Shown here piece after piece: positions 35,988 to 37,871 of a stretch of 64,000 nucleotides of DNA. The stretch lies in the sequence record MN850579.1, one strand, 5' to 3'. Below the pieces are notes generated by a model that was given only the letters and a program-made list of their open reading frames with translations, made no database searches and had not been told where the DNA came from. The number at the start of each line of letters is the position of its first letter. The stretch's first letter is position 1. Position numbers and translations under genes: made by a program. The stretch is from Escherichia phage mogra.

Positions 35988-36274
35988 TTCTTTATGCTAA
36001 AGTATCGTCCATTGAGAACGGATATGAAAGCGACCAACGAGCAGCTAAAGCGTTAGTTGATGACTATGGTATTCTGACTATCTTTGAGGTTGAAAAGGTT
36101 TATATCGACCGTTCATCTTCACAAGTTAAATTACTCTGTGAAGACGTTAAATTTAACACAGTTAACTTTGATTTCTTTATTGAAACAGAAAAAGGCCCTC
36201 TTGAATATGATATTTTCAAGAACCCTTTGAAATTACGTTGCATTGAATATAACTACATTAATATGGTACGGTAA
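35984..36274 (+). CDS. Hypothetical protein
   Basis: 96 aa ORF, ATGA overlap with upstream gene. Confidence 0.6.
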   Translation: MILYAKVSSIENGYESDQRAAKALVDDYGILTIFEVEKVYIDRSSSQVKLLCEDVKFNTVNFDFFIETEKGPLEYDIFKNPLKLRCIEYNYINMVR

Positions 36275-36370
36275 AACGTAATTTGCTTTAAGAATTATGT
36301 GTTATTATTAATCTACCCTCTATTACCAAAGGTGCTCCCTCAAGTGCCTTTCATAATAGAAAGTTATTTA

Positions 36371-36445
36371 GGCCCTGTAGCTCAATGGGAGAGCTGTCAG
36401 CTCATAACTGATAGGTAGCTGGATCGAAACCAGCCAGGGCCACCA
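36371..36445 (+). tRNA. tRNA with CAU anticodon (Ile2 with lysidine, or Met)
   Basis: Hand-folded cloverleaf: acceptor GGCCCTG/CAGGGCC, D arm GCTC-AATGGGA-GAGC, anticodon loop CTCATAA, T arm GCTGG/CCAGC, encoded CCA. Confidence 0.8.
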
Positions 36446-36545
36446 ATTCGCGGTGAGTACGCTCTTAGGTAGGTAAGTTGTTCGAATAAGGGTTAAAAGT
36501 AGAACCTACAAACGAGTAACCCTGAAACACCCAAAGCCGCATCAT

Positions 36546-36622
<77 letters not shown>

Positions 36623-36640
36623 ACTTCAAGTGAGGAAAAT

Positions 36641-36985
36641 ATGAAAGGCAATATTTATTTGGTAGTTCATGATTTAACGTTTTATTTTAACGAACAGGAT
36701 ACAGTTATTTCCGACCGGTTGATTAATTCGTTATATCAACACGCTGATTACGTTTATTTTAAAAATGAATTAGGACATTGGAAGTTTCTTAAAAACCGTT
36801 CCGGGTTAACTAGTTTTGAATACTTTGACCGTAAAGACCTTTTAAACGAAATTCCATTACAACATCGGTTCCAGAAACGCGAATCACTATACTATTGTCG
36901 CCATATACCAAATGCTGAATGTGTTTATGAAGCGATTAATCTATGGCGTCGACGTCGAGAGCAAATTGATGATATGCCAAAATAA
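36641..36985 (+). CDS. Hypothetical protein
   Basis: ATG after GAGGAAAA SD just 3' of tRNA-Arg; ORF-track start 36593 would overlap the tRNA. Confidence 0.6.
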   Translation: MKGNIYLVVHDLTFYFNEQDTVISDRLINSLYQHADYVYFKNELGHWKFLKNRSGLTSFEYFDRKDLLNEIPLQHRFQKRESLYYCRHIPNAECVYEAINLWRRRREQIDDMPK

Positions 36986-36989
36986 GAAG

Positions 36990-37260
36990 CCGGGTCGCTA
37001 CCGGCAAGTCGTCGGACTGATGTTCCCTGAGTAAGGACTGGTCTTAATAAATCTTTATGTTTTGTTAATATCCCCTTACATCACAGCAGAAACGGCGCAC
37101 CGAATTATCGATTCGAGGAAATATCTTTGCCGTAAGCCGAGTAGCGTTTTTGACGGAACGTTCGGATATGGTCGAGATATGGCCTTTTAAAAATATTGAG
37201 TAGCGTCAACTACTTAATAACCGGGTTCGAGTCCCGGCGTTTCGTACAAACACTTGCCTT
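36990..37260 (+). ncRNA. Candidate structured small stable RNA(s) downstream of the tRNAs
   Basis: About 300 nt with no ORF, several hairpins (GCCGG-TCGCTA-CCGGC; T-arm-like CCGGGTTCGAGTCCCGG), ending in a terminator; T4 has stable RNAs C/D next to its tRNAs. Confidence 0.35.
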
Positions 37261-37267
37261 AGCAGGT

Positions 37268-37297
37268 GGAACCCCGACAAGGTTGGGGCTTTTTTTG
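37268..37297 (+). terminator. Rho-independent terminator
   Basis: AACCCC...GGTTGGGGC hairpin followed by T7. Confidence 0.75.
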
Positions 37298-37340
37298 CAT
37301 AATAATAAATAGATAAGTTAATTAACTTAGGAAAAGCAAC

Positions 37341-37805
37341 ATGAAATCATACGCTGAATTTTTGACTGAACAATCTAGTTCAGATGTAAAAGCCGCTGCG
37401 ATTGCAGCAATTCAAGCAGGTAAATATTCTTACAAAGACGCCTCTGATGAAGAACGTTTCCGTTTTATTAGAGATTTTAAAGCCGAAGGTTTTACTAATG
37501 CTAATACTGTTAGCCGAGTTTTTAAAAGCCTAGCTGCATCAGGTGAATTGTTCCAGAAAGCTACAGGTAAAGCACCTGCACCAAAAGCGGACCCTAAAGC
37601 CGCTCAAGAAAAAAATATCGCCAAAGGAATTATTTCTAAGTATGAAGCAATTCTTAAAGAGCTTTTAGTAATCAAAACAGAAGGCCAGAAACTGGCACGA
37701 GCACATAGCTTCAAAGATAATCCTCACGCTCATAGCCTTGAGTATGTTGAAGATATCCAAAAACTTATTAAAGACCGTATCTGGTCTGCTAAACAAATTA
37801 AATAA
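37341..37805 (+). CDS. Capsid-targeted protein (CTS-bearing), function unknown
   Basis: 154 aa; N-terminus MKSYAEFLTEQ resembles CTS with L-x-E site. Confidence 0.65.
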   Translation: MKSYAEFLTEQSSSDVKAAAIAAIQAGKYSYKDASDEERFRFIRDFKAEGFTNANTVSRVFKSLAASGELFQKATGKAPAPKADPKAAQEKNIAKGIISKYEAILKELLVIKTEGQKLARAHSFKDNPHAHSLEYVEDIQKLIKDRIWSAKQIK

Positions 37806-37811
37806 TAGAAT

Positions 37812-37838
37812 GCCCCTTCCTTACGGTTGGGGCTTTTT
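37812..37838 (+). terminator. Rho-independent terminator
   Basis: GCCCC...GGGGC hairpin + T5. Confidence 0.7.
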
Positions 37839-37871
37839 GGTATCTAGGGCATAAAAATATTTCATAAAGAT

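Follow-up and report, generated by a model that had tools for sequence, protein, structure and literature searches.

Gene content of the locus

The window analyzed here is a 64,000-nucleotide stretch of DNA from Escherichia phage mogra (sequence record MN850579.1). The interval of interest closes a run of features in the order tRNA-Met, tRNA-Arg, a 114-aa ORF, the RNAs assigned here to rnaD and rnaC, a hairpin and a terminator. All lie on the + strand, and are listed below with the evidence for each.

36371–36445, + strand: tRNA-Met (CAU); ARAGORN and the Rfam tRNA model, 62.4 bits
36546–36622, + strand: tRNA-Arg (UCU); ARAGORN and the Rfam tRNA model, 71.1 bits
36641–36985, + strand: 114-aa CDS, RB69ORF150c-like, phrog_3355 (function unknown); ORF list and PHROG match, E = 1e-49
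36982–37101, + strand: very probable rnaD orthologue (T4 species 2 RNA), 120 nt; T4 alignment, fold z = -2.3 and covariation
37102–37107, + strand: linker GAAUUA between rnaD and rnaC, single-stranded and A/U-rich; conservation
37108–37246, + strand: very probable rnaC orthologue (T4 species 1 RNA), 139 nt; T4 alignment, covariance model and fold z = -3.8
37251–37268, + strand: hairpin CACUUGC-CUUA-GCAGGUG, 3' of rnaC; fold and conservation
37272–37296, + strand: intrinsic terminator with a 7-bp stem (5 G-C), an AAG loop, then C and T7; terminator scan and fold

The 114-aa CDS sits between tRNA-Arg and rnaD, has an annotated counterpart in ATK47, PhAPEC2 and RB69, and ends in a TAA stop codon (36983–36985) that overlaps the 5' end of rnaD. 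The 100-nt spacer at 36446–36545 showed no significant structure on folding and no similarity to the other loci compared. A megablast search with positions 36250–37400 against 50,697 phage records matched 808 T-even-type phages, the best matches being Mosigvirus (RB69-like T-even) genomes at 90–97% identity. The record of the Mosigvirus ATK47 has the same order of tRNA-Met, tRNA-Arg and RB69ORF150c-like CDS, followed by an ncRNA that is labeled, at the rnaC site, "rnaC; small stable RNA; species 1 RNA". The equivalent stretch is blank except for the terminator in the records of RB69 and PhAPEC2, and across relatives the rnaD/rnaC locus is blank in most and otherwise annotated as "hypothetical protein", "tRNA-Met" or "tRNA-OTHER".

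An original prediction, made from the letters of the sequence, had described the interval as free of credible ORFs and rich in hairpins, and all of the features it named are present: the 5' hairpin GCCGG-GTCGCTA-CCGGC at 36989–37005, the hairpin AGTAG-CGTCAA-CTACT at 37199–37214, the T-arm-like element CCGGG-TTCGAGT-CCCGG at 37221–37237, and the terminator, whose stem CCCCGAC-AAG-GTTGGGG (37272–37288) is followed by C and T7 and ends at 37296. The ORFs of the interval are all of 42 aa or fewer in the ORF list and start with TTG, and their portions within rnaC are broken in some homologues. The start proposed for the interval, 36986, moves upstream by four bases, as the first RNA begins at 36982 by homology to T4. 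The suggestion of one or two stable RNAs like the species 1 and 2 RNAs of T4 proved well founded. In the covariance-model search that had been proposed as a check, no Rfam family matches the interval; a model built from our own rnaC alignment scores rnaC at 170 bits.

Folding energies were below those of dinucleotide shuffles in each of three consecutive segments, 36982–37101 (z = -2.3), 37107–37246 (z = -3.8, a value reached by none of 200 shuffles) and 37247–37300 (z = -2.6). Rfam has no family for rnaC or for rnaD. When the Rfam models were applied at gathering score only the two tRNAs passed and no curated family was matched in the interval; at E <= 10 the interval gave noise alone (KCNQ1OT1_3 and isrK, E ~7). 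ARAGORN at default settings reported the two upstream tRNAs only, with no tRNA or tmRNA gene in the interval. Two apparent likenesses were considered and set aside. A "tRNA-Leu with a 5-nt intron", returned by ARAGORN under relaxed settings with introns allowed, contradicts the helices supported by covariation, and a resemblance to conserved regions of RNase P RNA (GAGGAAA at the 5' end of rnaC and ACAGCAGAAACGGC in rnaD) was accompanied by no RNase P model match at E <= 10.

Relationship to the T4 species 1 and 2 RNAs

The locus was aligned column by column with the tRNA-Arg–rnaD–rnaC region of T4 and with RB69, ATK47 and PhAPEC2, and the T4 boundaries were transferred to mogra. Judged from this comparison, the interval very probably holds the Mosigvirus orthologues of T4 rnaD and rnaC, as the distal part of the transcription unit of the tRNAs; we speak of orthologues rather than analogues because T4 rnaD and then rnaC can be aligned with it base by base.

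T4 rnaC, the species 1 RNA, is 139 nt long (NC_000866, 70908–71046), and the mogra RNA shares its length, its place after rnaD and its position before a hairpin and terminator. The two are identical at 137 of 139 positions (98.6%), one of the two substitutions falling in the T loop (UUCGAGU in mogra, UUCGAAU in T4). T4 rnaD, the species 2 RNA, is 119 nt long (NC_000866, 71053–71171); its mogra counterpart is identical at 104 of 120 positions (86.7%), colinear, and directly upstream of rnaC, and homology was also found by nhmmer, with E = 1e-21 for a single-sequence search and 7e-32 with a profile. Common to both copies of rnaD are the 5' hairpin, the closing helix, the motif GUUCCCUG, the 3' segment CACAGCAGAAACGGCGCACC and the position before rnaC, while the differences cluster in the apical domain. 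The 3' end is CCG in mogra and CCA in T4, and the upstream neighbor is the RB69ORF150c-like ORF in mogra and tRNA-Arg in T4.

The RNA block is by far the most conserved DNA of the region, because the protein genes around it are 70–77% identical to those of T4 and tRNA-Arg is identical to its T4 counterpart at only 44 of 77 positions (57%). Two small stable RNAs of T4, rnaD and rnaC, have been recognized since the 1970s, and the elements found here are thus not new: they are the expected RB69-like copies of T4 genes, and their chief practical value is for annotation. What the present analysis adds is their boundaries in mogra, their distribution, the strong constraint upon them, and a comparative structure that includes a candidate loop-loop contact.

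Structure of rnaC

Homologues of rnaC were collected from GenBank phages, IMG/VR and metagenomes, giving 34 distinct sequences with identities down to about 58%. They came from Tequatrovirus, Mosigvirus, Gaprivervirus, Kanagawavirus, Karamvirus, Tegunavirus, Marfavirus, Mosugukvirus, Moonvirus, Gelderlandvirus and Kagamiyamavirus, together with an Erwinia phage. RNAalifold, applied to a MAFFT alignment of this set, predicted a four-way junction with the following parts in mogra.

37109–37115, + strand: acceptor-like stem, 7 bp, CGAUUCG pairing with CGUUUCG at 37238–37244; covariation
37116–37185, + strand: long arm P2, about 70 nt, in the position of the D arm; helices 2–6, 93–100% paired
37186–37193, + strand: single-stranded junction UUUAAAAA between P2 and P3; conservation
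37194–37219, + strand: arm P3, the equivalent of the anticodon arm, 10 bp with a 6-nt loop CGUCAA (37204–37209); covariation
37221–37237, + strand: T arm, a 5-bp stem with the 7-nt loop UUCGAGU; 99.4% paired
37245–37249, + strand: U at the discriminator position, then ACAA; alignments

Over the 34 sequences 93.7% of the cells of the predicted pairs are paired, and 30 of the 45 pairs have changed on both sides. In the control with shuffled columns, none of 500 shuffles reached the observed value for any of five measures, and when the 3' partners were slid by one to three columns only 36–50% of cells were paired. At the acceptor pair 3:70, 16 sequences have A-U and 17 have G-C, and the middle pair of the T stem is G-C in 16 and U-A in 15; in P3 nine of the ten pairs have compensatory changes, as do most of helices 2–6 of P2. 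The acceptor stem contains a tandem U.U (4:69 and 5:68) in 31 of the 34 sequences, with Watson-Crick pairs at these positions in Tegunavirus and in PM2.

The residues GAGGA, UGGCC, AAAAAU and UAAC of the junction are invariant or nearly so, and the same is true, in all 34 sequences, of the AA-AU core of the strand joining P2 to P3. The tail beyond the acceptor stem always has the U and the CA and varies at the position between them: Tegunavirus has UUCA, Marfavirus and PM2 have UCCA, and the majority of genera have UACA. At the base of P2, a 3-bp helix (AGG/CCU) is flanked by conserved unpaired A (37119–37121) and UGG (37180–37182). We interpret this base as resembling a D stem, and the arm as looking like a D arm whose loop has taken up an additional hairpin of about 58 nt.

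A covariance model built from the alignment scored 107–170 bits on every homologue, the mogra sequence obtaining 170 bits, equal to T4 rnaC itself. The same model aligned genuine tRNAs end to end at 15–21 bits (tRNA-Gln of PQ824230 is an example), and for this reason we describe the architecture as tRNA-like. Together these results support a model of rnaC as a tRNA-shaped four-way junction, backed by covariation, that is like a tRNA without being one.

A candidate loop-loop contact in rnaC

The apical loop of P2 holds the sequence UUGACG (37150–37155), which is exactly complementary to the loop of P3, CGUCAA (37204–37209). Scored as a pseudoknot across the 34 sequences, this helix is 99.5% paired and there are no one-sided changes. 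Two lineages carry double changes that preserve it, UUGAUG with CAUCAA in Tegunavirus and UUGGCG with CGCCAA in Marfavirus; the covariation of the helix amounts to these two independent compensatory events only, each as the pairing predicts. On this evidence we propose a kissing helix between the P2 and P3 loops as a candidate feature of the rnaC fold. We know of no earlier description of a loop-loop contact in species 1 RNA, in a check that covered literature other than the sequence papers of the 1970s. Such a contact would sequester the equivalent of the anticodon loop and clasp the two arms that are foreign to tRNA, leaving the acceptor/T-arm end exposed, and the compact, clasped fold that results may account for the stability of the RNA.

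Structure of rnaD

The structure of rnaD was derived from 21 distinct sequences, including divergent copies from Marfavirus and from Pectobacterium phage PM2 that were located by nhmmer elsewhere in the tRNA arrays of those phages. In this alignment (RNAalifold with pair counts) the paired fraction of cells is 95.4%, and compensatory changes occur in 11 of the 25 pairs. The 5' hairpin at 36989–37005 has a G-C closing pair in mogra and A-U in T4. It is followed by a closing helix, GUCGUCG/CGGCG-CA, in which 37008–37014 pairs with 37093–37097 and 37099–37100, and by an inner helix that has undergone compensatory changes. The motif GUUCCCUG (37022–37029) is invariant, and is one of three near-constant segments, the others being AAGUCGUC..ACU and CACAGC.GAAACGGCGCA. 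The apical domain varies by lineage and occurs in at least three unrelated versions. No tRNA-like features were seen in the rnaD structure; rnaD is a separate hairpin RNA, less constrained than rnaC.

Distribution of the two RNAs

Phages of the Dhakavirus type (vB_EcoM_005, LQ5 and two IMG/VR genomes) are missing exactly rnaC and still have rnaD, the hairpin and the terminator, the junction reading CACCGAA followed immediately by CACTTGCC. The reverse arrangement is found in Kanagawavirus, Karamvirus, Tegunavirus, Moonvirus, Gelderlandvirus and others, where rnaC lies between tRNA genes with no recognizable rnaD adjoining it. The two RNAs are separable, each occurring without the other. A possible intermolecular pairing of rnaD with rnaC (GAAACG/CGUUUC) was rejected, as it is lost in Marfavirus and either RNA can occur alone.

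A pattern scan for rnaC found 15 IMG/VR viral contigs and 11 metagenome contigs, nearly all of them from phages already in the set, and no match in 185,579 bacterial and archaeal species genomes (one genome per species), which gives no indication of a prophage copy or a cellular origin. From these searches, the family seems to occur only in T4-like phages that infect enterobacteria. A match in IMG/VR to the core pattern of rnaD looks fortuitous, its flanks being unrelated.

Transcription and proposed maturation

In T4, eight tRNAs and the species I and II RNAs are all derived from one primary transcript, about 1.75 kb long, whose end lies after species I (PMC2330249). T4 RNAC and RNAD accumulate late in infection as discrete RNAs and have been validated by Northern blot (PMC9697503). 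By analogy, a polycistronic precursor in mogra would end at the terminator at 37272–37296 and would release rnaD and rnaC. This terminator is shorter than the T4 and RB69 forms by a deletion of about 30 nt, as seen in comparison with T4, RB69 and PhAPEC2. The hairpin between rnaC and the terminator is present in T4, RB69 and Dhakavirus loci, even where rnaC has been lost.

An endonucleolytic cut within the linker might part rnaD from rnaC. T-even, Mosigvirus and Gaprivervirus sequences share the linker in the form [GA]AAUUA, and RNase E prefers to cleave R-N/W-U-U (the stroke marks the cut); because the linker fits this preference, we consider GAAUUA, partly on the strength of the older T4 literature, the likely site of separation. 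RNase P and the tRNA 3'-end and CCA enzymes classically need no more of a substrate than a coaxial helix of acceptor stem and T arm, and since rnaC presents such a helix it should be matured like its tRNA neighbors. The 5' end of rnaD may be formed differently from that of T4, as it is preceded here by an ORF and not by a tRNA.

Possible functions

The roles of rnaC and rnaD were given as unknown in 2010, 2022 and 2025 (PMC3014915, PMC9697503, PMC12685909), and we found no functional assignment for the species 1 and 2 RNAs in the literature searched; few phage non-coding RNAs have been known for so long without one. When a T4-like phage was evolved on E. coli ECOR34, one SNP inside rnaD was common to all lines (PMC12685909), which hints at a host-dependent role for rnaD.

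We think it possible, with more doubt than confidence, that rnaC is a tRNA mimic occupying a host or phage protein that recognizes the acceptor stem, T arm or elbow of tRNA, and that rnaD is a host-dependent accessory RNA. A stricter version, in which rnaC would be a purpose-built mimic, its body locked by the kissing contact, that occupies or redirects a tRNA-recognizing protein, with rnaD an independent host-range accessory RNA, strikes us as rather doubtful. Deletions of the whole tRNA region of T4 are viable on laboratory hosts, and any function of rnaC or rnaD must therefore be accessory. If the mimic reading is true, it would offer an answer to the 50-year-old question of the species 1 and 2 RNAs in terms of anti-defense or host takeover.

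Proteins that might be targets of a tRNA mimic include a host tRNA-targeting defense nuclease, a tRNA-processing or CCA-adding enzyme, and an aminoacyl-tRNA-dependent transferase.

The two RNAs could instead be trans-acting regulators or sponges that base-pair through conserved single-stranded sequences, GUUCCCUG in rnaD and UUUAAAAAU in rnaC. A sponge derived from a tRNA spacer, 3'ETS-leuZ of E. coli, offers a comparison. Conservation of these unpaired motifs in both RNAs is consistent with such a role, the SNP in rnaD common to the ECOR34-evolved lines suggests an activity that depends on the host (PMC12685909), and rnaC and rnaD have been called small regulatory RNAs, in a source that does not give the evidence (PMC9697503). 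However, no target is known, and according to a 2010 review T4 had no functionally characterized trans-acting regulatory RNA (PMC3014915); moreover, helices and the proposed kissing contact take up most of rnaC, and the features that it conserves best resemble a tRNA and not a seed. We consider base-pairing regulation unlikely.

Less probable again is a function in cis only, in which the two RNAs would be 3'-UTR stabilizers or processing signals for the upstream ORF and the tRNA precursor, and the discrete fragments by-products. The arrangement in mogra lends itself to this view, since rnaD begins where the upstream ORF stops and the block is the last part of the transcription unit, right before the terminator. 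Gene order elsewhere argues against it: in T4 the two RNAs follow a tRNA, and in Kanagawavirus, Moonvirus, Gelderlandvirus and others rnaC has tRNA genes on both sides. Invariant loops, a T loop and a loop-loop contact that covaries would, furthermore, be superfluous in a stabilizer, and the T4 RNAs accumulate as discrete species (PMC9697503).

The original prediction had also entertained a degenerate tRNA remnant, and the part of this idea that stands is the kinship to tRNA, as the acceptor stem of rnaC covaries and its T arm is canonical. That rnaC is a decaying tRNA pseudogene, or a spacer left by rearrangement of the tRNA cluster and transcribed without function, seems to us highly improbable. 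It is true that only the acceptor stem and T arm of a tRNA are retained, that neither ARAGORN nor the Rfam tRNA model recognizes the sequence, that rnaC is cleanly missing from Dhakavirus-type phages and hence dispensable, and that the T4 deletions noted above are viable. Yet rnaC is 98.6% identical to its T4 counterpart when neighboring genes are at 70–77% and tRNA-Arg at 57%, and 30 of 45 pairs are compensated across about a dozen genera in which loops and junctions are invariant; this combination is the mark of a folded RNA under purifying selection and not of decay. Finally, we give practically no credence to the interval coding for small proteins, as the "hypothetical protein" annotations under it in many of the matched relatives' records would imply, given that its ORFs of 38–42 aa depend on TTG starts, that the portions overlapping rnaC contain stops or frameshifts in 7–16 of 34 homologues, and that rnaC substitutions track base-pairing and not codon structure.

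The comparative structure presented here provides handles for mutagenesis and for partner searches, namely the acceptor/T-arm end, the tandem U.U, the invariant junction and the loop-loop clasp.

Comparison with tRNA and other tRNA-like RNAs

Measured against the tRNA family (RF00005), rnaC scores below the gathering threshold of 29 bits, and there is no RF00005 match in the interval at E <= 10. What it shares with tRNA is the four-way junction, an acceptor stem of 7 bp and a T stem of 5 bp closed by a UUCRANU loop; further tRNA-like traits are its site inside tRNA arrays and the unpaired A and GG that flank its D-stem-like helix. It differs from tRNA in that the D arm is replaced by an arm of about 70 nt, with the insert of about 58 nt at the D loop, and in that the equivalent of the anticodon arm has 10 bp and a 6-nt loop sequestered by pairing, compared with 5 bp and a 7-nt loop in tRNA. 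The variable loop is missing, the acceptor stem contains the tandem U.U, and CCA is not encoded in most genera. In the structure as modeled, rnaC cannot decode.

In overall plan there are parallels with the tRNA-like domain of tmRNA and with the bacterial Y RNA-like RNA YrlA. ARAGORN found no tmRNA and Rfam no tmRNA or YrlA match in the interval. Unlike tmRNA, rnaC has no tag ORF and no ring of pseudoknots, and pair 3:70 is A-U in mogra, G3.U70 occurring in PM2 only. The ends of YrlA RNA form a Ro-binding stem and not an acceptor stem. The domains of tmRNA and YrlA resemble rnaC in that the 5' and 3' ends form an acceptor-like stem stacked on a T arm, with the rest of the molecule inserted between the ends, and for RNAs of this plan handling by tRNA enzymes is to be expected.

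Separability of rnaD and rnaC

Either RNA gene can occur away from or without the other, as several of the fetched comparison loci (L-numbers) indicate. Dhakavirus-type phages (L008 703-870, L009 703-870, L052 and L055) show an exact absence of rnaC, with CACCGAA joined directly to CACTTGCC, and still keep rnaD, the downstream hairpin and the terminator. These phages are a natural rnaC deletion that can be used for comparing phenotypes. Divergent rnaD-like sequences were found at two further loci:

L011 133-209, Klebsiella phage PWKp16
L026 6161-6215, minus strand, Pectobacterium phage PM2

Both retain AAGUCGUC..ACU..GUUCCCUG, and the PWKp16 sequence also retains CACAGC..GAAGCGGCGCA, the place of which is taken in PM2 by the more diverged CAUAAC..GGGUGCA. 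Adjacency of rnaD and rnaC is not obligate, since in PWKp16 and PM2 the rnaD-like copies lie hundreds of bases from rnaC, elsewhere within the tRNA array.

T4 is nearly the only phage in whose public record rnaD has been annotated. The rnaC locus carries wrong labels in public records, namely a 95-nt "tRNA-Met", "tRNA-OTHER", or between one and three "hypothetical proteins", with examples in PQ824230 (L006 754-848), NC_054920 and many further matching records.

Features within and upstream of the RNAs

Midway along its acceptor-like stem, rnaC has a tandem U.U mismatch that is kept in 31 of the 34 distinct sequences of alignment A5. Two lineages tolerate Watson-Crick pairs at these positions. 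The mismatch may serve as a signal for recognition or against it.

37112-37113 with 37240-37241, tandem U.U (A5 columns 6-7 with 139-140)

At the other RNA, the RB69ORF150c-like CDS ends with a TAA stop (36983-36993 region) that falls within the 5' end of rnaD as placed from T4, three bases short of the first rnaD hairpin. In T2 and P479, too, an ORF stops here. Termination of translation and rnaD folding or processing would compete on one shared transcript.

Further upstream, tRNA-Met and tRNA-Arg are separated by 100 nt (36446-36545); the equivalent gap is 3-6 nt in ATK47 and RB69, and PhAPEC2 has an additional tRNA (Asn/Asx) there. The spacer was not significantly structured on folding (z = -0.9), had no Rfam match and no similarity to the fetched loci, and is apparently also present in phage AV118.

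Possible rearrangements downstream of rnaC

The features concerned, all 3' of rnaC, are:

37272-37296, terminator, CCCCGACAAGGTTGGGGCTTTTTTT, compared with T4 (L003 2835-2885, minus strand) and PhAPEC2 (L002 2470-2540)
37341-37805, phrog_2280, the next CDS downstream of the terminator
37812-37846, terminator-like sequence after that CDS, CCCCTTCCTTACGGTTGGGGCTTTTTGG

The first is a shorter, hybrid form of the terminator found at the equivalent site in T4, RB69 and PhAPEC2, where CCCCGACAAGGTTG and AAGGTTGGGGCTTTTT are separated by about 30 nt, and from its sequence it looks like the product of a deletion between two AAGGTTG repeats. Among the best 12 of 578 phage records matching a 106-nt query, none was colinear across the terminator; the alignment was always split in two pieces, spanning ~135 nt versus 106 nt in the query. 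Because 37812-37846 matches, with 86% identity, the T4 segment immediately 3' of rnaC (70822-70856), the phrog_2280 CDS looks like a cassette inserted, relative to T4, between two copies of a same-family terminator.
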